Below, piece after piece: positions 1-7,787 of a stretch of DNA of 34,224 bases. The stretch is taken from the NCBI GenBank assembly GCA_025544715.1, contig GCA_025544715.1_4109.4. One strand, 5' to 3'. The notes beneath the pieces were generated by a model, which was not told where the DNA came from, made no database searches, and worked only from the letters and a program-made list of their open reading frames with translations. How positions within the stretch are numbered: position 1 is the first letter of the stretch; the number at the start of each line of letters is the position of its first letter. The stretch is from Escherichia coli (GTDB lineage Bacteria > Pseudomonadota > Gammaproteobacteria > Enterobacterales > Enterobacteriaceae). Position numbers and translations under genes: made by a program.

Positions 1-151
1 GTGCCGAGATCCGTCCAAAATTCATAAAATTTAAAAAGGATACACTCCCGCACCTTAGCAGGTCATAGCACTTTCTCAGCACTGAATCATAGTATCATAG
101 TACGCCCCAGGATGGCAAGCAAATTAATTAAAACTTTTTGCTTTTAGGCTA

Positions 152-180
152 TTGCTTTTATAATTCAGTACTGCTATAAT
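152..180 (+). promoter_or_regulatory. sigma70-like promoter candidate TTGCTT-17 bp-TATAAT with CAGTACTG box in spacer
   Basis: TTGCTT 152-157, 17-nt spacer containing CAGTACTG (166-173), TATAAT 175-180. TTGCTT also resembles a T4 MotA-box core, so class is ambiguous. Confidence 0.4.
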
Positions 181-402
181 TATTTCATCAAGTCGAGAAA
201 GACTATAGCCCACCGGGTGCATAGTTACGCCTAAAATTCAGTACTAGATTATTTTTAAAAATATTCATCCAGGCGGTTGACATTACCCCCAGTTTATTAG
301 ATAATGATTCCAGATTCAGAAAAATCTAACTCCAGATACTGCGGGGAAACCATCCCCACGCGGTAGGGGAACTATTGGAAAAAACAGAATAAAAATTTTG
401 AT

Positions 403-560
403 TTAGCCGTCTATACATCCAGACGTGTAACCATCTAGCCGTTTAGCCGTCCAAACGTCTAGCAGTACAGCCATCTAGAAATCTAGCCATCCAGCCGCCT
501 AGAGGGATAGCCATCTTTACTTCCAGCCATCTGGAGGTCTAGACATCTCTACGTCTAAAT
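403..560. repeat. iteron-like cluster of short degenerate direct repeats, CTAG-rich
   Basis: Recurring units TAGCCGTC / CCATCTAG / AGCCATC / ACGTCTA over about 160 bp; locally GC-richer than surroundings; at least 6 CTAG tetramers. Confidence 0.45.
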
Positions 561-1342
561 TTAACCTAGGGTTACTACGCCCAAAATCCGTCAGTACTAT
601 ACCATAGATCTATCTTTATGAAGAGAGTATTCAGTACTGCCATCATAGCCCTCACTATGTTACCTTGGGAGGATGAAGACTATCATGTAGTACTGAATAC
701 TGTTAGTGGATAATCCACCAGCACAAGCTGGTGGCATAATGCGTTAGATTAATATCAGTACTGCTACCATTCTGTTAATAACAGTACTGTTTATATTACG
801 AAAAAAGAGGTTGTCAAAGATGAACTGCCTCAAAGGAGGATTCAATCTAATCTGTACTGTCTCACGACAGGAGGTAGAGTGAATGAATTGTTTGCGGCAA
901 CTCATCTCTCTATGTAGAACATTATACAGTACTGAATCATAATGTCAATAGCTTTCTTTCATTTATTCAGTACTAAAATTGTATAATCTGTATCTCTACA
1001 AAACTCATTATATCCCACAAATCCTATATGTCCCAACGTAAATTTCAACTTTCGAAGATCGAACTTTTATTTCATAGGTACTCCAAAATTTTTACGATCC
1101 AGATTTAGGATGGAGTACTAACCAACTTTTTGCTGGAGCCTCAAGGGGTAATTGAAATTTTCCCCGAAGGGTAAAGAGGTAATTGAAATTAAGGTGAAAG
1201 TAATAATTCAGTACTAATCATTGCGTGATTACTTTTGATTACATTTGATGTAATTTGAAAAATGGAAAAGGAGCTTGGAAACTACAAAGTACGGCAGACT
1301 TCCTCTGCCTACTTAGTGGCATATCAGTACTGAATCCTTCCC

Positions 1343-1372
1343 GTGCATTCTTGTGCATTCTTGAGCATTCTT
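1343..1372. repeat. 3 x 10-bp tandem repeat (GTGCATTCTT, GTGCATTCTT, GAGCATTCTT)
   Basis: Direct read of three head-to-tail units. Confidence 0.6.
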
Positions 1373-1443
1373 GTCTATACTAATCAGTACTGAATCATAT
1401 ATAATCATTCTGTGATTCTACGGTGCTCATATAAATGTTTATA

Positions 1444-1472
1444 TATGATTACTTATGACTACCTATGATTAC
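1444..1472. repeat. 3 copies of TATGATTAC / TATGACTAC at 10-bp period
   Basis: Direct read; follows a TCAGTACTGAATC box. Confidence 0.5.
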
Positions 1473-1512
1473 GGGGTTTAGCCTGGGGAGAATCCTAGTG
1501 ATCGCATTTGTC

Positions 1513-1552
1513 CAGGCTGAATTTTAACATATGCAACATATGTTAAAGCCTG
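1513..1552. other. long imperfect inverted repeat (about 16 bp stem with 5-nt bulge, 3-nt loop) abutting a TATAAT
   Basis: CAGGCT-gaatt-TTAACATATG / caa / CATATGTTAAAGCCTG; TATAAT immediately follows at 1553-1558; no U-tract, so not a canonical terminator. Confidence 0.4.
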
Positions 1553-1597
1553 TATAATGCTTCCACTACGGAGCTTCCCCTGTCTATATGTGTTTAA

Positions 1598-1807
1598 TTA
1601 CTTCCTATATATAAGCATTAAGATATAGTAGTACTGATTGTACTGTACATTCTCTTTAATATTATAAGGGTCTATAGCAATCTCGGTACATTTATTAAAT
1701 TTATATCGAGTCATTAATAGAGGGATTAGAGCGTTAATCCACACTTGTTCATTCTCTTTGAGTTTACTTATATAGTACTCTTTATACTCTTTATACTCTT
1801 TATACAT
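1598..1807 (-). CDS. small tandem-paralog protein (KEYY family), 69 aa, N-terminal KEY x3 repeat
   Basis: ATG start; N-term MYKEYKEYKEYYISKL and C-term LMLIYRK fit the family; contains 3 perfect 9-bp repeats. Confidence 0.6.
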   Translation of the reverse strand: MYKEYKEYKEYYISKLKENEQVWINALIPLLMTRYKFNKCTEIAIDPYNIKENVQYNQYYYILMLIYRK

Positions 1808-1820
1808 AGTATTATCTCTA

Positions 1821-2003
1821 TTAATATGATAGTACTAGTGTTAGTACTGAGCACAATTGTTCTTTATAGTTCTTAGGGTGTATAGAATCTTTTATGCACT
1901 CATTAAAGTGCCATAGGTATAATCTTGGGTCGCATTCTTTATATATTCTTACGGGGACGAATGTTAGTTTTCGTATATAGAATTCTTTATGTTCTTTATT
2001 CAT
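1821..2003 (-). CDS. small tandem-paralog protein (KEYY family), 60 aa
   Basis: ATG start; N-term MNKEHKEFYIRKL; tandem with paralogs. Confidence 0.6.
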   Translation of the reverse strand: MNKEHKEFYIRKLTFVPVRIYKECDPRLYLWHFNECIKDSIHPKNYKEQLCSVLTLVLSY

Positions 2004-2008
2004 ATTAG

Positions 2009-2194
2009 TTAGTGTCTGTATATAAGTAATAGTAAGAATACGTACTGCACATCTTCATCTTTAGTATTGAGTACTGTACGTATTGCGTCATTAAACAAGA
2101 ATATAGTACTTGGGTCATGAAAATTTAAAGGGATTCTGGGTACGGCATGTTTGTAGTTCCCTTTAACAAATTGTGTGTAGTATTCTTTATGCAT
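2009..2194 (-). CDS. small tandem-paralog protein (KEYY family), 61 aa
   Basis: ATG start in conserved junction gtagtattctttatgcat; N-term MHKEYY, C-term LLLIYRH. Confidence 0.65.
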   Translation of the reverse strand: MHKEYYTQFVKGNYKHAVPRIPLNFHDPSTIFLFNDAIRTVLNTKDEDVQYVFLLLLIYRH

Positions 2195-2195
2195 G

Positions 2196-2381
2196 TTAGT
2201 ACCTATATATTAGTAAAAGGATGTGATACAGTACTCGATTATAGTCTTCAATATCTATCGAGGATTTAGTGCACTTAATGAAGTAGTCTTTTTCGTAGTC
2301 TTTTTCTATACCCAATGCAACGTTTGGTACAAGGTGTTGGAGATACATTGGGAGTTTCTCTATGTAGTATTCTTTATACAT
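2196..2381 (-). CDS. small tandem-paralog protein (KEYY family), 61 aa
   Basis: N-term MYKEYYIEKLP, C-term LLLIYRY; SD AAGGAT upstream. Confidence 0.65.
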   Translation of the reverse strand: MYKEYYIEKLPMYLQHLVPNVALGIEKDYEKDYFIKCTKSSIDIEDYNRVLYHILLLIYRY

Positions 2382-2390
2382 ATATTATCC

Positions 2391-2579
2391 TTAGTACTGG
2401 AACGCGAGATACAGGGTGTGGTACAGTTGTACTTGATAATTGTTTTCATTAAGTAATTGTTCAGTACATGTGCGGAAGTAATCAGCTTCGTATATACAGT
2501 TAATATCACGATGTTCATCTTCTAATAGATTGCCTTGTAGAAACTTTGGCAGGTCTTTAATGTAGAATTCTTTATGCAT
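2391..2579 (-). CDS. small tandem-paralog protein (KEYY family), 62 aa
   Basis: N-term MHKEFYIKDLP; family member. Confidence 0.65.
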   Translation of the reverse strand: MHKEFYIKDLPKFLQGNLLEDEHRDINCIYEADYFRTCTEQLLNENNYQVQLYHTLYLAFQY

Positions 2580-2588
2580 ATTATTTCC

Positions 2589-2783
2589 TTAGTACACGAA
2601 CGAGAGGTACAGAGTGTGGAATAGTACTCGATGATAGGTTGCATCTTCGTTTATGCATACGTTAGTACACATAATGAAGTACGCTTTATTGTTCACGGTG
2701 TTTAAGTCTCTAGGTTTATCTAGGAGATCTATTAGGTACTGTGGAAAATATTTTCTGTATAATTCTCTGTGTTCATTATTCAT
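2589..2783 (-). CDS. small tandem-paralog protein (KEYY family), 64 aa
   Basis: N-term MNNEHRELY; conserved Y-F-x-x-C-T core. Confidence 0.6.
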   Translation of the reverse strand: MNNEHRELYRKYFPQYLIDLLDKPRDLNTVNNKAYFIMCTNVCINEDATYHRVLFHTLYLSFVY

Positions 2784-2784
2784 A

Positions 2785-2973
2785 TTAGTACCTGTATATT
2801 AGATTTAGTACATTGTACAGGTTATACATATCATCATATTCTTCTTCTATTGTACGAAATATATGCGTGCGGTAGTATCTTGTGTTGCTCTTATCTTTAA
2901 AATTTACAGGTTCGCGGGTAATAAGCTTTTGGTAATTAATTGTAAGTTTACTTATGTAGTATTCTTTATACAT
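2785..2973 (-). CDS. small tandem-paralog protein (KEYY family), 62 aa
   Basis: N-term MYKEYYISKL, C-term LNLIYRY. Confidence 0.65.
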   Translation of the reverse strand: MYKEYYISKLTINYQKLITREPVNFKDKSNTRYYRTHIFRTIEEEYDDMYNLYNVLNLIYRY

Positions 2974-2975
2974 AA

Positions 2976-3158
2976 TTAGTACCTGTATATAAGTAGGATA
3001 ATGTTATATAGCTGGTCTAAACTGCTACTGTTTTCTATGCAGCGTTCTATACAATTTTCGAATCCAAGTACAGCCAAATCATTATCCAGTACTAATTTAT
3101 GTCGAGCGAAGTGTTCCATAATGCTGGGTAGTTTTTGTATGTAGTATTCTTTATGCAT
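2976..3158 (-). CDS. small tandem-paralog protein (KEYY family), 60 aa (start moved to internal ATG)
   Basis: Track ORF 2976..3221 begins at a non-family extension; the family start MHKEYYIQKL is the ATG at 3156-3158; C-term ILLIYRY. Confidence 0.6.
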   Translation of the reverse strand: MHKEYYIQKLPSIMEHFARHKLVLDNDLAVLGFENCIERCIENSSSLDQLYNIILLIYRY

Positions 3159-3822
3159 AGTTTGCAATATATGTAATGAGGTGATGCATTTTCTTATTAG
3201 TACTGATAAGTTCCTGTACATGTTTTGTAAGATTGTACGCGTTTTTGTACAACTCTGGATTATCGATTACAGTACTGTACATGAATAGTTCTTCTTCCTG
3301 TAGTTCTTTATGTTCTAGTTCTTTGAGGAATTCTACAATTGATTTAGTTTCTTCTGTACGTTGTGCTTGCCAGAAGTGCATATTCTCGTGTACTTTTTCT
3401 GCATCAGTAGAGTATATGCCACCCATTTGGAATTGTGCTGTATTGACATCGTGGGAGGTGTTACAATTCCCGAAGAAGTATGTATTCCCGAAGTATAGCA
3501 TTAAAGTGCACGGGGTATTATCCAACTGCATATTGATGATGAAGGATGCGTTCTTTAGTACCTTCGTGCTCGTATTAGTACTCAATACTTTTAAATCAGT
3601 ATTATAGATATTCATATAATGAACAGCTATATTATTTTTCTTCATGTACAATCCCAGGTTCTTTGATACGTTAACTCCATTTGTACTGTTTTTTTTACTT
3701 TTCTTTAGGTTCTTTAGTACATTAGGGTGATACGTATATGCAGATGTAACTGATTCTGCCTGAATACTGTTGAGATACTTAAAGTGCTTAAGGTATTGTT
3801 TGCTGTGTGCATTAAGTTTCAT
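3151..3822 (-). CDS. hypothetical protein, 223 aa, unrelated insert within the small-protein array
   Basis: ATG start with SD AAGGAA; no family termini; Asn/Lys-rich N-half, acidic helical C-half. Confidence 0.6.
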   Translation of the reverse strand: MKLNAHSKQYLKHFKYLNSIQAESVTSAYTYHPNVLKNLKKSKKNSTNGVNVSKNLGLYMKKNNIAVHYMNIYNTDLKVLSTNTSTKVLKNASFIINMQLDNTPCTLMLYFGNTYFFGNCNTSHDVNTAQFQMGGIYSTDAEKVHENMHFWQAQRTEETKSIVEFLKELEHKELQEEELFMYSTVIDNPELYKNAYNLTKHVQELISTNKKMHHLITYIANYA

Positions 3823-3832
3823 TTGGTTTCCT

Positions 3833-4012
3833 TTATATAGATGCCAAGGCGAGGATTTCCCTGTAGGGATTATCTTGTGTTAGTACAGCATAAATGCAGC
3901 TATTGAGATTAATATTTTTAGTACTTTTTGTTCCTAGGTTGTAGTAATCAACGAATGTGTCGTACATGAAACGGTCTTTTATGGTTATACGTTCTATATA
4001 GAATTGGTTCAT
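3833..4012 (-). CDS. small tandem-paralog protein, 59 aa (below track length cutoff)
   Basis: Hand-translated: MNQFYIERITIKDRFMYDTFVDYYNLGTKSTKNINLNSCIYAVLTQDNPYREILALASI; fills the gap between array members. Confidence 0.45.
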   Translation of the reverse strand: MNQFYIERITIKDRFMYDTFVDYYNLGTKSTKNINLNSCIYAVLTQDNPYREILALASI

Positions 4013-4020
4013 AGTATTCC

Positions 4021-4203
4021 TTATATAGAGATTAGTTTCATTACTTCTCTGTATGTGTACTTTTCGTTTTGTGCATCTCTTGTGACGACATATAGGAAGG
4101 TGTGTTTATCTTTTTTGTTCCCGCAATTGTAGAAAATATTGAACTTATTGAAGTTGAATCTTTCGGCGTGTTGTAGTTTAGTTAAATAGAATTCTATGTT
4201 CAT
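4021..4203 (-). CDS. small tandem-paralog protein, 60 aa
   Basis: ATG start; MNIEFYLTKLQ; similar to neighbour 4212..4397 (C-term TYREVMKLISI vs TYRAVLKLIEM). Confidence 0.6.
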   Translation of the reverse strand: MNIEFYLTKLQHAERFNFNKFNIFYNCGNKKDKHTFLYVVTRDAQNEKYTYREVMKLISI

Positions 4204-4211
4204 TTTCTTCC

Positions 4212-4397
4212 TTACATTTCAATAAGTTTCAGTACTGCTCGGTACGTGTACTTAGTTGTTAGTGCTTCTTTAATAGAAATGCAGAAGTAATGTTGTTTGT
4301 CTCTTATACTGCCGCGTTTGTAGTACCACACATGGGAGTTGTGACTGTACTTGTCTCTGTCGGATAGTTGTTGGTAGTAGTAGCTTATATGATTCAT
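4212..4397 (-). CDS. small tandem-paralog protein, 61 aa
   Basis: ATG start; paralog of 4021..4203. Confidence 0.6.
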   Translation of the reverse strand: MNHISYYYQQLSDRDKYSHNSHVWYYKRGSIRDKQHYFCISIKEALTTKYTYRAVLKLIEM

Positions 4398-4444
4398 TGT
4401 AATTAGCCTTACTATGTTAAAGTACTCGGTCCCTGGTGTACCTT

Positions 4445-4639
4445 TTAGAACTTAAAGATGAGGTTCAGGATAGAGCGGTACTTAGTTGCAGGGAACGTAT
4501 GTTCTATTGCATAACGTGTCACCATCCTGAAATCGTAATTATAATACAGATTATCCTTTCTCATAGGTGGTGCTAAAGAGAATGATAGCTGTTCTTGTTT
4601 GGGTAGTTTACTACAATAGAAATCTTTATGATTATTCAT
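4445..4639 (-). CDS. small tandem-paralog protein, 64 aa
   Basis: ATG start; N-term MNNHKDFYCSKLP, C-term LNLIFKF. Confidence 0.6.
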   Translation of the reverse strand: MNNHKDFYCSKLPKQEQLSFSLAPPMRKDNLYYNYDFRMVTRYAIEHTFPATKYRSILNLIFKF

Positions 4640-4841
4640 AGAAATATATTAGTCCTATTAAACCTGAGTACATAATATTTTTGTTATTACATTCGATTGC
4701 TTCTATAGTACTACGTATACAATTATTAAAGCAATCTCTGGCGTGTGGTGTATCTATACTTAAAGGTGATACACTCCTTAGAAACAATTGTTCTTCGTTG
4801 CTAAGGTATTTGGTGTAGAATTCTTTATGTTCAGTATTCAT
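4632..4841 (-). CDS. small tandem-paralog protein, 69 aa
   Basis: ATG start; N-term MNTEHKEFYTKYL; 8-nt overlap with downstream gene. Confidence 0.6.
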   Translation of the reverse strand: MNTEHKEFYTKYLSNEEQLFLRSVSPLSIDTPHARDCFNNCIRSTIEAIECNNKNIMYSGLIGLIYFYE

Positions 4842-4842
4842 A

Positions 4843-5052
4843 TTAGTACTCGATTAATAGTGTTAAGATGAAATAGTACTGCATAGACTCGTTACCTTCA
4901 AGGAAATTCCTTATGAGGTTATTTCTGACTGAGTTAAGCAGAAGTGCCGAACGTTTTGCATTTGCAAGTATAATTTGTTGATGCTCTATGCTATTCTGTT
5001 CACCTTTTGACAGAGCACATAGGTAGTACTGCATAATTTGTTCTTGGGTCAT
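4843..5052 (-). CDS. small protein, 69 aa, divergent array member
   Basis: ATG start overlapping upstream stop; weaker family resemblance. Confidence 0.5.
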   Translation of the reverse strand: MTQEQIMQYYLCALSKGEQNSIEHQQIILANAKRSALLLNSVRNNLIRNFLEGNESMQYYFILTLLIEY

Positions 5053-5294
5053 ATAGATGCCAGTACTAAAAGGTTAATGAATCGTTTACTTTCATCAGGG
5101 TTTTGAAGTCCCTCAAAGATGTCCTCTATAAAGCAATTCAACATAAGTGCACTTGTTGGGGTAGTACTTTTTTTGAGGGTATTGATTGCACAGAATTTTG
5201 AAAGGAAGAATGCGAAATCTTCTGCGTTCATGTAGCTCATATAGTTCTTAGTACTTTGGCTAAGTGCTTGGTAGTGATCTATTACATTGTTCAT
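5049..5294 (-). CDS. small protein, 81 aa, first gene of the minus-strand array
   Basis: ATG with SD AAGGAG 6 nt upstream; directly downstream of the consensus promoter at 5318-5346. Confidence 0.6.
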   Translation of the reverse strand: MNNVIDHYQALSQSTKNYMSYMNAEDFAFFLSKFCAINTLKKSTTPTSALMLNCFIEDIFEGLQNPDESKRFINLLVLASI

Positions 5295-5317
5295 GAAATT
5301 CTCCTTATATTTTTTAT

Positions 5318-5346
5318 ATTATAAATGAGTCCAGAAAGGATGTCAA
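5318..5346 (-). promoter_or_regulatory. consensus sigma70 promoter TTGACA-17-TATAAT for the small-protein array
   Basis: Minus-strand read: TTGACA (plus 5341-5346), 17-nt spacer, TATAAT (plus 5318-5323), then SD and ATG of 5049..5294. Confidence 0.65.
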
Positions 5347-5359
5347 GGGTTTTCTTTTT

Positions 5360-5395
5360 GTGGTAAATATGATATAACAAATAAAGGAGGGATTT
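5360..5395 (+). promoter_or_regulatory. conserved 5' cassette of leader-family gene 1 (-10-like TATAAC, SD AAGGAGG)
   Basis: AAATATGATATAACAAATAAAGGAGGGATTTATG aligns with the cassette upstream of the other family genes; -35 unclear. Confidence 0.35.
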
Positions 5396-6598
5396 ATGTT
5401 ACCTTTTGGAAGAATGATTAAGTACGCAAATATTGCACCAGGTCCAGAACCTGTAGAGTTCTCAGATGTTTTACAACAACATTATACAAACTGTATGTAT
5501 CTACATAACCCAACTAATACTTTATATGGTTATGGTAGTAATAACATGTATCAATTTGGTCTTGGGAATTCAGCAGCAGTTTCGTCATTTACAGTACTTG
5601 CAAGGAACTGTGCAGCCTTTTGGCTTGGTGTTCAAGGTTCATTGATGATTGATTTGGATAATAAAATATACTACACTGGGTCGGTTGGTGCATTTTCTGA
5701 TTATGGAGATGCAACACCTGTTAATGGTTATTTGACAACATGGACTGATGTTACTGTTGCATTTAATAAAATAGGTGTTATGGCTAATATGATCAAGAGT
5801 GTATATATAGGTGAAAGTACTAGAATATTATTAACCGATGGTAGAGTAATTGCGTGTGGAAGAAATACCAATGGTGAATGTGGCTCTGGTAATAAAAATT
5901 CCATCCCTACACTCACAGTTATGACTAATATGGGTGAAGTTACACATATGGCATGTTCATTACAAGGAACGCACTATATCAAATCAAATAAAGATGCATG
6001 GTTTTGTGGTAAGGATAACTTTGGTGAAAGTGGATGTGGTGGTAGTTCTGTTGTATATTTGAACAAATTCGTGATTAGTAATGTAGAACATATTAGTACT
6101 ACATACGATGTTACATGGTGGTTTACTACTGGTGGGCCTGTATATTATAGCGGGGCTAACAGTACTGGACAAGCGGGTAATGGTACGACTACATCGGTAA
6201 ATCAGCTAACACCAATTAGGAACACATCGGTCACGGTTGATGTAAGTAAGTACAGTACTTTTATTTGTCCAAGTAATATGGGAAATGCATCAATTGGTGC
6301 ACCTATGGCACAATACGCACCATATGTTAGAAGTAGTGGTGCTAACTCATATGGTCAAGAAGGTAATGGAACTAATACATTAGTTAGAACTTGGAATATT
6401 TTTAATCTTAGTGCAATAAGTGGTGGTTATGAAAATGTTCTTATGGCATCTAAAGATTGGAGCAGAACCATAATAATTACTAAAGATTATAAATTATATG
6501 CATGTGGTGGCTGGAATGGAAATGGTGGTAGATTGCCAGATGGCACTTATAGTATTACTACACTAACATTAATGCCAACGCAGTTATGGCAACAATAG
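5396..6598 (+). CDS. leader-tagged RCC1-like beta-propeller protein, 400 aa
   Basis: ATG after AAGGAGG; N-term MLPFGRMIKYAN; repeated GxNxxG(Q/E)xGxG motifs (NGECGSGN, GQAGNGT, GQEGNGT); S/T/N/G/Y-rich. Confidence 0.8.
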   Translation: MLPFGRMIKYANIAPGPEPVEFSDVLQQHYTNCMYLHNPTNTLYGYGSNNMYQFGLGNSAAVSSFTVLARNCAAFWLGVQGSLMIDLDNKIYYTGSVGAFSDYGDATPVNGYLTTWTDVTVAFNKIGVMANMIKSVYIGESTRILLTDGRVIACGRNTNGECGSGNKNSIPTLTVMTNMGEVTHMACSLQGTHYIKSNKDAWFCGKDNFGESGCGGSSVVYLNKFVISNVEHISTTYDVTWWFTTGGPVYYSGANSTGQAGNGTTTSVNQLTPIRNTSVTVDVSKYSTFICPSNMGNASIGAPMAQYAPYVRSSGANSYGQEGNGTNTLVRTWNIFNLSAISGGYENVLMASKDWSRTIIITKDYKLYACGGWNGNGGRLPDGTYSITTLTLMPTQLWQQ

Positions 6599-6606
6599 GA
6601 GGGAAT

Positions 6607-7716
6607 ATGTTACCTTTTGGAAGAATAATTAGGTATGGAAATATTGTCCCTGGTCCTAAAAAAATAATTAAAGTTGGTGCTTCTACCCAAGGCCAATTCT
6701 TATTGACTGATTCACATGATTTATATTACATAGGTAGAAATCAAGGTGGTGAATCTGGAAATGGTAATACCAACACGGTGTCTTCGTGGACATTAGTAAG
6801 TGCAGATGTTTCTAATTTTTTCGTGGGTGATCGTACACTTGTTATTATTAAAAATGATAATACGATATGGACATCAGGTCAAACGTACTGGTTCTCATCT
6901 TCTACAACTACTTCTTACAGTACTGTATTAGTTGAAAGAACTAATTGGTTTACCAATGCTATACCAGTAAGTGAAATTGCTAATATTGTATGTACAAATG
7001 GTTTAATATTTGTACTTAGCACTAATTCAGTACTCTATGGTGCAGGAGATAATGGATATCGTGGTTCTTTGGGTATTGGTTCATCATCAATTTACACATT
7101 AACTCAATGTGCTACGAACGTTCGTAAAGTAATGACCAATGCGAATGATAGTATGTATCTTACATTAGATAATAAGCTATATAGTTCTGGATGGAATAGT
7201 AGTGGGCAGCATGGTACGGGGAACCAAACACAAATTAACACTTGGGGATTGCGTAGTTCTGGTGTAATCGATGCAGCCATTGGTGGTAATGCATTAAATT
7301 ACTATAATGGTACATCATATTTCGTATGTGGTCAAACTCCAAACTTTCTTAGTTCAGGTACGACTACATTCCGTGCAGTTCCTTTAAGTACTTTGCCTAA
7401 TAGTTCTCCGTTGTTTATGACGAATTCACCTGCCTTAAATACTGCTACACAAATGGTAATTACCAGTACATATCAGAAGGGTGTTGGGGCGAACCGTGGT
7501 TTGGGATTAAACAATTCTCAAACTGGTGCTATATATAGTGCTACCAATTTACAATTACCCGTTGAAGTTAGTGAGATTAGGGATGTTCTTTTTAGTGATG
7601 GTTTGACATCGATATTAACCAAAAATGGAGATGTGTATAGTACTGGATCGTATTACGCCATTCCAGGTGCAATCGAGGATGTTGCAGTCTTTACTAAAAT
7701 TGATTTACCAAAATAA
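6607..7716 (+). CDS. leader-tagged RCC1-like beta-propeller protein, 369 aa
   Basis: Track ORF starts upstream; family start MLPFGRIIRYGN is ATG 6607 with SD AGGAGGG overlapping upstream stop; motifs GGESGNGN, GQHGTGN. Confidence 0.8.
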   Translation: MLPFGRIIRYGNIVPGPKKIIKVGASTQGQFLLTDSHDLYYIGRNQGGESGNGNTNTVSSWTLVSADVSNFFVGDRTLVIIKNDNTIWTSGQTYWFSSSTTTSYSTVLVERTNWFTNAIPVSEIANIVCTNGLIFVLSTNSVLYGAGDNGYRGSLGIGSSSIYTLTQCATNVRKVMTNANDSMYLTLDNKLYSSGWNSSGQHGTGNQTQINTWGLRSSGVIDAAIGGNALNYYNGTSYFVCGQTPNFLSSGTTTFRAVPLSTLPNSSPLFMTNSPALNTATQMVITSTYQKGVGANRGLGLNNSQTGAIYSATNLQLPVEVSEIRDVLFSDGLTSILTKNGDVYSTGSYYAIPGAIEDVAVFTKIDLPK

Positions 7717-7722
7717 CATAAT

Positions 7723-7747
7723 GCCAGTACAGAGTACTGGCTTTCTT
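7723..7747 (+). terminator. intrinsic terminator (GCCAGTAC-aga-GTACTGGC plus T-tract)
   Basis: Perfect 8-bp stem, 3-nt loop, followed by TTTCTTATTT; just after the stop at 7714-7716. Confidence 0.65.
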
Positions 7748-7787
7748 ATTTGTATTAAATATAGTATAATGAATAAAGGAGGAATTT
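7748..7787 (+). promoter_or_regulatory. conserved 5' cassette (TATAAT -10-like element, SD AAAGGAGG)
   Basis: TTGTATTAAATATAGTATAATGAATAAAGGAGG repeated almost identically upstream of four other family genes; -35 poorly matched. Confidence 0.4.

Follow-up and report, generated by a model that had tools for sequence, protein, structure and literature searches.

A phased array of met-box-like units in the terminal repeat of Asteriusvirus jumbo coliphages, with the host repressor MetJ as predicted ligand

The host regulator MetJ of Escherichia coli is a ribbon-helix-helix dimer which uses S-adenosylmethionine (SAM) as co-repressor and binds direct tandem units of 8 bp. Its operators (metF, metB/metJ and others) are composed of two to five tandem boxes without spacer and follow the consensus AGACGTCT. 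Each dimer occupies one 8-bp box, and repression requires at least two adjacent boxes (PMC3228920). Here, an array of 19 similar units is described at positions 405-556 of a 34,224-nucleotide stretch of DNA deposited as E. coli (assembly GCA_025544715.1, contig GCA_025544715.1_4109.4), hereafter called the window. The array and the MetJ operators have the same 8-bp period and are alike in register, consensus, per-box scores and tolerated variants, and the host encodes MetJ. The array differs in comprising 16-19 boxes (28 in the Aeromonas phage AhSzq-1) as opposed to four in each of the K-12 operators scored, in residing in a phage terminal repeat and not in a met promoter, and in a roughly five-fold enrichment of C at position 3 which renders it strand-asymmetric; its binding by MetJ is predicted.

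Several other systems invite comparison. The concatemer junction of T7-like phages carries short-repeat arrays beside the terminal repeat and a pause site for RNA polymerase. In cosB of phage lambda, a single bend made by IHF lies beside the terminase R sites, within approximately 200 bp of the nick. Plasmid centromeres, such as the omega heptads of pSM19035 and the ParG sites of TP228, are made of contiguous 7-8-bp units, each of which receives one ribbon-helix-helix dimer of a cooperative filament. For the injection stop signal (iss) of phage T5, located in Repeat Region 3 and containing conserved paired DnaA boxes, binding of DnaA has been proposed, itself a hypothesis (Davison, bioRxiv 10.1101/866236). 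MetJ is unmentioned in that comparison of T5-like iss regions, and a full-text literature search on MetJ and phages found no description of met boxes in phage genomes, nor of a MetJ decoy.

The array consists of 19 abutting 8-bp units in one register with zero insertions or deletions (152 bp in total; consensus AGCCATCT). The units, some of which fall below the box threshold defined further on, are as follows.

405-460: units 1-7, AGCCGTCT ATACATCC AGACGTGT AACCATCT AGCCGTTT AGCCGTCC AAACGTCT
From 461: units 8-12, agcagtac (below threshold) AGCCATCT AGAAATCT AGCCATCC AGCCGCCT
To 556: units 13-19, agagggat (below threshold) AGCCATCT ttacttcc (below threshold) AGCCATCT GGAGGTCT AGACATCT CTACGTCT
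557-564: weak twentieth unit at the decayed end of the array, AAATTTAA (MetJ-matrix score -0.71 bits)

The initial annotation of this DNA, made from the letters alone, had described positions 403-560 as a CTAG-rich cluster of short degenerate direct repeats, locally richer in GC than its surroundings. All four motifs it named (TAGCCGTC, CCATCTAG, AGCCATC and ACGTCTA) were found there and represent a single unit read in shifted registers. The repeats are thereby confirmed, with the refinement that they are far from loosely scattered, the 19 units being contiguous and in register without any indel. The elevated GC content was also recovered, with 0.44-0.465 in windows over the array compared to 0.29-0.39 in most other windows of positions 1-3000. 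Likewise, seven CTAG sites are located inside 435-569, in a window that overall contains fewer CTAG sites than expected (62 compared to 88); the CTAG-rich appearance arises because each junction joins the CT of one unit to the AG of the next. The same junctions supply each strand with TAG stops at intervals of about 8 bp. Mechanical open reading frames (ORFs) in 1-1597 number just two, both short (42 and 53 aa) and both clear of the array, and a coding function was rejected. An Rfam scan of 1-4000 (E-value up to 1) returned a single chance miRNA match and no known RNA family.

Self-matching in the array region peaked at 0.60-0.66 for lags of 8, 16 and 24 bp, and lags 16, 24 and 8 were the three highest peaks among lags 4-24 in the first 3 kb. 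Tandem Repeats Finder reported fragments only (periods 8, 16 and 32; scores 30-77), because the units are just some 60-70% alike. In 200 composition-preserving shuffles of the window the longest run of qualifying boxes was three, compared to runs of seven, four and four in the array, and a chance origin of the array is excluded.

The units were scored with the published half-met-box weight matrix and the thresholds of Augustus and Spicer (PMC3228920, Table 3), by which a box must reach at least a quarter of the consensus score (3.145 bits) and a site at least the consensus score (12.58 bits). Of the 19 units 16 qualified as boxes, with individual scores of 3.2-11.2 bits, and the sum was 116.2 bits. 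Three runs qualified as sites and these were the only ones in the 34-kb window.

405-460: seven boxes, 55.8 bits
469-500: four boxes, 25.9 bits
525-556: four boxes, 25.7 bits

In 5.5 kb of sequence from E. coli K-12, the same script recovered two operators and nothing else, those of metF and metBJ (four boxes each), and these genuine boxes scored 4.5-10.4 bits. Among the 65,536 possible 8-mers just 42 score at least 8 bits, and the array consensus AGCCATCT scores 8.09 bits. By our estimate, an arbitrary 8-bp repeat would resemble the met box this well with a chance of approximately 0.5%, all eight registers being allowed. The top-scoring box of the MetJ matrix, AGACGTCT, is identical to the consensus of the arrays in Eneladusvirus phages of Serratia, Erwinia and Yersinia, and to the pooled jumbo-phage consensus. 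The latter is symmetric, in accordance with the met-box symmetry form AGAC/GTCT, whereas the window consensus AGCCATCT is asymmetric.

A pooled set of 211 units (71 of them distinct) from 14 arrays in three phage groups, the jumbo phages, T5-like phages and podophages described below, allowed a comparison of the complete variant spectrum. The logarithms of the pooled base frequencies correlated with the MetJ matrix at Pearson r = 0.89 over the 32 matrix cells, and all other registers gave r ≤ 0.40. For the non-consensus bases alone the Spearman coefficient was 0.82, a value reached by none of 20,000 within-column permutations. Since the minor variants follow the MetJ matrix, the deviations tolerated in the array mirror those tolerated by MetJ. 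The right half of the box, (G/A)TCT, is near-ideal, with T at position 6 in 90%, C at position 7 in 81% and T at position 8 in 75% of the units. Some units are the reverse complement of a common unit (AGATGGAT complements ATCCATCT), as expected for a binder with two-fold symmetry.

By period, register, consensus and variant spectrum, the array units would therefore classify as met boxes, and the statement in the initial annotation that no function can be assigned from sequence was too pessimistic. Judged on these sequence features, the odds that host MetJ binds the array appear even to slightly favourable, and are lower for any single downstream role. The array is flanked by two sigma-70-like promoters inside a phage terminal repeat, and no met gene is close by. 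Canonical met operators are located at met-gene promoters, and the array is therefore filed not as one of them but as a series of the same binding unit. What appears to be new is the binding unit of a known operator at a several-fold box number and in a new location.

E. coli K-12 encodes metJ (b3938) and MetJ is confined to five gammaproteobacterial orders. Three of these five include all host genera listed for array-bearing phages, with the sole exception of Xanthomonas, the host of phage XbC2. A tblastn search of 50,697 phage records with E. coli MetJ did not identify a phage homologue; the three matches, all 99% identical to the E. coli protein, were two Salmonella genome contigs and one 1.4-kb fragment, and a phage-encoded MetJ was rejected on this basis. 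TrpR, the other repressor known for CTAG-based 8-bp tandem binding, was likewise considered and tentatively rejected. Its half-site is ACTAG, and the array is devoid of ACTAG, the CTAG being preceded by T (position 6, 90%).

The window is approximately 90% identical to jumbo coliphages of the genus Asteriusvirus with genomes of about 350 kb (121Q, PBECO4 and phAPEC6), and its source is an Asteriusvirus of the 121Q/PBECO4 type. In the record of phage vB_Ec-M-J a direct terminal repeat (DTR) of about 21 kb is annotated at 1-21525, and base 1 of this record aligns with window position 1313 on the minus strand. Window positions 1-1313, read on the minus strand, are therefore the first 1.3 kb of the DTR, and the window from 1314 on is the right end of the unique region. 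The array is thus found 757-908 bp inside the DTR. The termini of a close relative, fEgEco12, have been determined by PhageTerm and restriction digests. The following elements surround the array.

277-305, plus strand: sigma-70-like promoter TTGACA-N17-GATAAT directed toward the array, 11 of 12 consensus matches
375-404, plus strand: A/T-rich segment abutting the array, GGAAAAAACAGAATAAAAATTTTGATTT
715-734: hairpin CCACCAGC-ACAA-GCTGGTGG between the minus-strand promoter and the array, annotated in the G17 record as a putative minus-strand terminator
921-948, minus strand: sigma-70-like promoter TTGACA-N16-TATAAT directed inward toward the array, 12 of 12 consensus matches
1226-1258, 1343-1374 and 1444-1472: 10-bp tandem repeats flanking the DTR boundary, TGATTACATT, GTGCATTCTT and TATGATTACC, respectively
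1293-1309, minus strand: stem-loop GGCAGA-GGAAG-TCTGCC just inside the terminus
1313: DTR boundary and physical genome end, from the vB_Ec-M-J annotation and the alignment

The plus-strand promoter has its predicted start near 312, so that the array begins at about +93. It was kept in 10 of 10 Asteriusvirus genomes examined, in which the -35 element is located 126-128 bp before the array. The minus-strand promoter is 365-392 bp from the DTR boundary and the array starts at about +350 from it. Every Asteriusvirus genome examined has this promoter, 387-409 bp away from the array edge and with 11 or 12 of 12 consensus matches, and an inward-pointing counterpart was found at +346 to +404 in phages of Serratia, Erwinia and Cronobacter. 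A terminator role of the hairpin at 715-734 is doubtful because no T-run follows it.

The 10-bp tandem repeats, the stem-loop at 1293-1313 and the terminal sequences are likely signals of the terminase cut site. The records of BF, an Erwinia phage, XbC2, CBB and fENko-Kae01 open with TATC(T/C)(T/G)(T/C)TC, the first four continuing with CCTGAAGTC, and Asteriusvirus reads ...GGAAGTCTGCCGTACTT at the corresponding terminal position.

In line with the comparison to related genomes that the initial annotation had suggested, the array was found to be kept in more than 35 related phage genomes. Asteriusvirus arrays comprise 12, 16, 17, 18, 19 or 24 units, and all length differences are whole units with the phase kept. 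Orthologous arrays are present in other Rak2-like genera, namely Eneladusvirus (Serratia, Erwinia and Yersinia phages) and Mimasvirus (Pectobacterium, Cronobacter and 'Xanthomonas' phages). At about 70-76% identity, the order of individual units, weak ones included, is still recognisable across the three jumbo genera. Blastn matches of the other genera start at query base 29-30, equivalent to window 358-359, and a similar A/T-rich segment precedes the array in Asteriusvirus, Mimasvirus and Eneladusvirus. The only out-of-phase array seen was that of phage CMSTMSU (an UNVERIFIED record), where one missing base at about 846-860, after seven units, shifts the remainder; this may be a sequencing error.

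Across jumbo phages, T5-like phages and podophages, in-phase arrays of 8-28 boxes were detected, the 28 belonging to AhSzq-1. The T5-like carriers are Demerecviridae of Vibrio, Aeromonas and Providencia, exemplified by PR1 with a DTR at 1-10461 and an array at about 9620-9691. Their arrays sit at the map position of the T5 injection stop signal, and between convergent gene blocks where both flanks are recorded. The podophage carriers are the E. coli phages PGT2 and phiKT. In PGT2, nine boxes are located at 38-109 inside an exact DTR of 260 bp, and its opening units AGCCGTCT AAACGTCT are common to the jumbo phages. Just outside this DTR, at about 261-345 of the PGT2 record, is a second short-repeat tract, rich in ATCT and including AGCTATCT ATCTATCT ATCTATCC AGCTATCC, which by hand calculation is below the met-box site threshold.

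Wherever the DTR boundary is annotated or determinable, the array is inside the DTR near one boundary. The window has a distance of 757 bp, the records which start at the terminus (vB_Ec-M-J, CBB, BF and XbC2) about 650-700 bp, PR1 about 770 bp and PGT2 38 bp. The Eneladusvirus and Mimasvirus arrays are located about 650-850 bp from the start of five records which apparently begin at the terminus, as judged by their shared opening terminal sequence. All-against-all blastp of the ORFs around the arrays gave zero matches between the three phage groups. The same type of array in three groups without shared ORFs nearby favours a host factor over a phage-specific one.

Searches outside these phages yielded little. 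Blastn against 72,556 plasmids and 5,426 E. coli genomes revealed no counterpart of the array. With the flank pattern TTTGATTTAGCCGTCT in IMG/VR, 121Q was the sole relative matched and the remaining matches were due to chance. A scan of viral collections with four consecutive copies of AGMCNTCY gave few further heterogeneous arrays. The longest run among the collection-scan matches examined was in IMGVR_UViG_3300031658_004036, an uncultivated viral contig in which 36 consecutive boxes, AGACATCT or GGACATCT, occupy 7257-7544, close to the end of the stretch retrieved; their MetJ-matrix score is 356 bits. The matches listed from a bacterial scan with the same pattern were mostly monotonous repeats in taxa without MetJ; the pattern is therefore unspecific and does not provide a taxonomic test. 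The bacterial repeats are near-perfect copies of one unit, mostly without the CT/AG junction, unlike the heterogeneous phage arrays. They include (AGCCGTCC)n, (AGCCATCC)n and (AGCCTTCC)n and occur several times per genome in some metagenome-assembled genomes of Gemmatimonadales, Anaerolineae and Schleiferiaceae, and also in Streptomyces.

Compared to the systems above, the array and the T5 iss are both non-coding and repeat-rich, both are located in a long terminal repeat near its inner boundary, and for both the binding of a host protein is proposed. The iss, however, has an IRD'-spacer-IRC' element with paired DnaA boxes, whereas no DnaA box is present in window 1-1700, and two-step injection is a T5 trait not known for Asteriusvirus. 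With the T7 junction the array shares short repeats at a terminal repeat and, as an idea, the halting of transcription at the unit boundary; the podophage PGT2 has nine boxes in its 260-bp DTR. The T7 repeats are not known to be 8-bp tandem units or met-box-like, and at the T7 pause it is a nucleic-acid signal that acts on the phage polymerase, with no host-repressor roadblock. The lambda cosB site is similar in employing a host DNA-binding protein as an architectural element by the terminase cut site, which is what we propose for the array, but the array is 150 bp long, about 760 bp from the cut, and other repeats are nearer. The plasmid centromeres have in common with the array contiguous 7-8-bp units and, as predicted for MetJ, one ribbon-helix-helix dimer per unit in a cooperative filament. 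A centromere was rejected, with no par ATPase or ribbon-helix-helix gene in the flanks and no blastn match among the plasmids. In terms of class, the array is neither an iteron origin, nor a T5-type injection stop signal, nor a ribbon-helix-helix centromere.

The reading we prefer, to which we assign a probability of about one half on sequence evidence, is that the array represents 16-19 phased met boxes on which host MetJ with SAM forms a filament serving as a barrier or landmark near the genome end. It may be depicted as follows: In infected E. coli, MetJ dimers loaded with SAM would bind one per box and contact their neighbours cooperatively, so that some 150 bp of the DTR, at a distance of 0.76-0.91 kb from the genome end, would be covered by a continuous repressor filament. 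Its primary role would most likely be cis-acting: with the two conserved sigma-70-like promoters converging on it, and located at the boundary between concatemer units, the filament would be a protein barrier or landmark that prevents RNA polymerase from reading through the repeat boundary and the terminase cut site. As an unavoidable side effect, each replicated genome would take approximately 16-19 MetJ dimers from the host pool. The cis role is favoured because the array is without exception found within the DTR close to a boundary, because promoters or gene blocks converge on it in every case with both flanks readable, and because array-less relatives display other operator-like repeats at the same distance from the end. 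With the closeness to the genome end and the anatomy of protein-binding sites established, the likeness to binding-site arrays of packaging sites drawn in the initial annotation holds in part, and a role related to the terminus is plausible; the likeness to replication origins is not supported.

Several observations weigh against this reading. The argument for the barrier is purely positional. The array is located at about +93 and +350 from the two flanking promoters, further downstream than expected of a classical operator. Bacteria without MetJ also possess monotonous 8-bp repeats, (AGCCGTCC)n for instance. That the hosts encode MetJ is weak evidence, because MetJ-bearing hosts are nearly a given for all three phage groups. 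The array is retained in XbC2, a phage isolated on Xanthomonas vesicatoria, although the Xanthomonadales are outside the five MetJ orders; the GC content of this phage, 37.5% against about 65% in the host, suggests ancestry from an enterobacterial phage. No met-box array was found in the first 12 kb of T5, which hold the left terminal repeat and whose host E. coli is MetJ-positive, nor in the first 3 kb of the DTR of the Klebsiella jumbo phage fENko-Kae01, nor in the first 4 kb of the record of XaC1, a more distant relative with the same host as XbC2. Array-less relatives on MetJ-positive hosts indicate that the array is dispensable or replaceable. Finally, the box is asymmetric. In its left half, AG(A/C)C, position 3 is split between A (49%) and C (50%), whereas the symmetry-related position 6 is T in 90% of the units; position 4 has T in 4%, compared to 37% A at position 5, its symmetry partner. 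Genuine met boxes have C at position 3 in just 10% (PMC3228920), which makes this base about five-fold enriched in the phage units. The asymmetry could reflect a different protein or descent from an AGCC founder unit.

The array-less relatives carry repeats of other kinds. In fENko-Kae01, 19-mers at 711-800 and 2342-2360 match the Fur box GATAATGATAATCATTATC at 16-17 of 19 positions, and in its 3 kb there are seven matches of at least 14 of 19 positions compared to 0.26 in shuffles. In the injection-stop region of T5 (9653-9718), matches of 15-16 of 19 positions were noted, and these putative Fur boxes represent a lead. XaC1 has, at about 790-880, two copies of the palindromic AAT(C/T)ATTAGCATCCTAAT(C/G)AT, some 0.8 kb from the start of the record and thus in the same relative position as the arrays. 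Sites of different host repressors may occupy the same position in the DTR.

A serious rival, or an additional purpose, is that the array acts as a sink. Replicating genomes would titrate MetJ and derepress methionine and SAM synthesis (metA/B/C/E/F/K and metNIQ), feeding phage protein synthesis and SAM-dependent DNA methyltransferases, several of which are encoded by phage Sharanji. With 16-19 boxes the array is roughly four-fold larger than the metF or the metBJ operator, in each of which four boxes were detected, the location in the DTR provides two copies per packaged genome, and by our own arithmetic about 96 genome equivalents would present some 1,700 or more boxes. One infecting genome, however, brings only about 32-38 boxes, from which no early effect is expected, and titration helps only as long as host genes stay transcribable; T5 degrades host DNA early, according to the annotation of A1. 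Placement within 40-800 bp of the DTR boundary in three phage families would also be unneeded for a sink, and as the sole explanation we consider it unlikely.

To a similarly low degree we credit the possibility that the array binds a phage protein or another host protein, such as the small terminase subunit, a ribbon-helix-helix protein or an injection-stop factor. The array would then be a pac-like packaging site or an injection-stop landmark, and its likeness to met boxes coincidental or convergent. This would suit the consistent location in the DTR near a boundary, the place of the T5 injection stop signal occupied by the T5-like arrays, the strand asymmetry of the units, unexpected for MetJ, and the retention of the array in XbC2 on a host without MetJ; the opening units AGCCGTCT AAACGTCT common to PGT2 and the jumbo phages hint at transfer of arrays between phages. 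On the other side, coincidence does not predict minor variants that follow the MetJ matrix cell by cell. Ten neighbouring small ORFs compared to Pfam gave only DUF7249 and no DNA-binding domain, and no ORF near the arrays is common to the three groups, whose packaging proteins we would not expect to be related. As a terminase site in particular, the repeats at 1226-1258 and 1343-1374 and the stem-loop are better candidates, being much nearer the cut, within 90 bp.

A neutral variable-number tandem repeat, driven by slippage and without binding function, is improbable. The copy number does vary by whole units from 12 to 24 among close relatives, and monotonous 8-bp repeats of similar units occur in many bacteria. 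With 71 distinct units among 211, however, some positions are far more tightly held than others, where neutral decay would blur all eight equally; in addition the order of units, weak ones included, is kept across three genera at about 70-76% identity and the DTR position is conserved in three phage families. The iteron-type replication origin suggested in the initial annotation is the least probable of all, since the repeat array beside a 30-bp A/T-rich segment in a largely ORF-free 1.6 kb, with a change of GC skew sign nearby, has contiguous 8-bp units where iterons are spaced units of 17-22 bp, has no DnaA box in 1-1700, no adjacent initiator gene (the small ORFs tested lack Pfam Rep or DNA-binding domains) and no counterpart among the plasmids, while the skew changes sign where gene orientation switches at the genome end, a terminal-repeat element would occur twice per genome, and T5 origins are placed near the genome centre (Davison, bioRxiv 10.1101/866236).

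Taken more generally, DTR phages of at least three unrelated families may embed arrays of host-repressor operators and thereby recruit a host protein as a structural part of the genome end, a generalisation which we put forward tentatively, as it is rather less probable than the MetJ reading itself. It would cover the 8-28 MetJ boxes described here and possibly Fur-like boxes in the Klebsiella jumbo phage and T5, and the DnaA boxes of T5. The recruited protein could be a transcription insulator or roadblock at the concatemer junction, a landmark for injection or packaging, or a methionine/SAM sink.

Other features of the window were noted in passing. The two strands together contain 110 copies of the motif CAGTACT, frequently as the palindrome (TT)CAGTACTG(AA), compared to 5.25 expected, and these are spread over the entire window (for example at 166-173, 632-639, 756-763, 927-934, 1325-1332 and 1385-1392). 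About 14 sites are in the ORF-free 1-1650, one of them 12 bp outside the DTR boundary, and several are followed by TATAAT-like hexamers. AGTACT motifs are also dense at the DTR starts of fENko-Kae01, XbC2 and XaC1. CAGTACT could be a phage-specific promoter or operator element, or a site of modification or of a nuclease. On the minus strand at 1598-3221, the right end of the unique region, some eight small ORFs (60-81 aa) form a family of tandem paralogues, the majority of which begin with M(Y/H/N)KE(Y/F/H) and end with LLIYR(Y/H/K); the one tested had no Pfam match. A run of paralogous genes of about 250-400 aa occupies 5396-14704 on the plus strand, and four of four tested matched RCC1-like repeat domains (Pfam PF25390, PF00415 and PF13540).

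If MetJ binds, a host operator array several times longer than those of metF and metBJ would be present in the terminal repeats of several unrelated phage families. This would offer a testable handle on two long-standing questions, namely the role of the conserved non-coding repeats (the T5 injection-stop region among them) found at DTR phage ends, and the organisation of the 20-kb terminal repeats in jumbo phages of the Rak2/121Q group. In practical terms the array would be a natural MetJ decoy of predicted high capacity, usable to derepress methionine and SAM synthesis. A phage could then sense or drain a metabolic regulator of its host, and with it the methionine/SAM status, by DNA sites alone. 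Should the general reading be true, lytic phages would have an undescribed way to use host transcription factors without encoding any protein.

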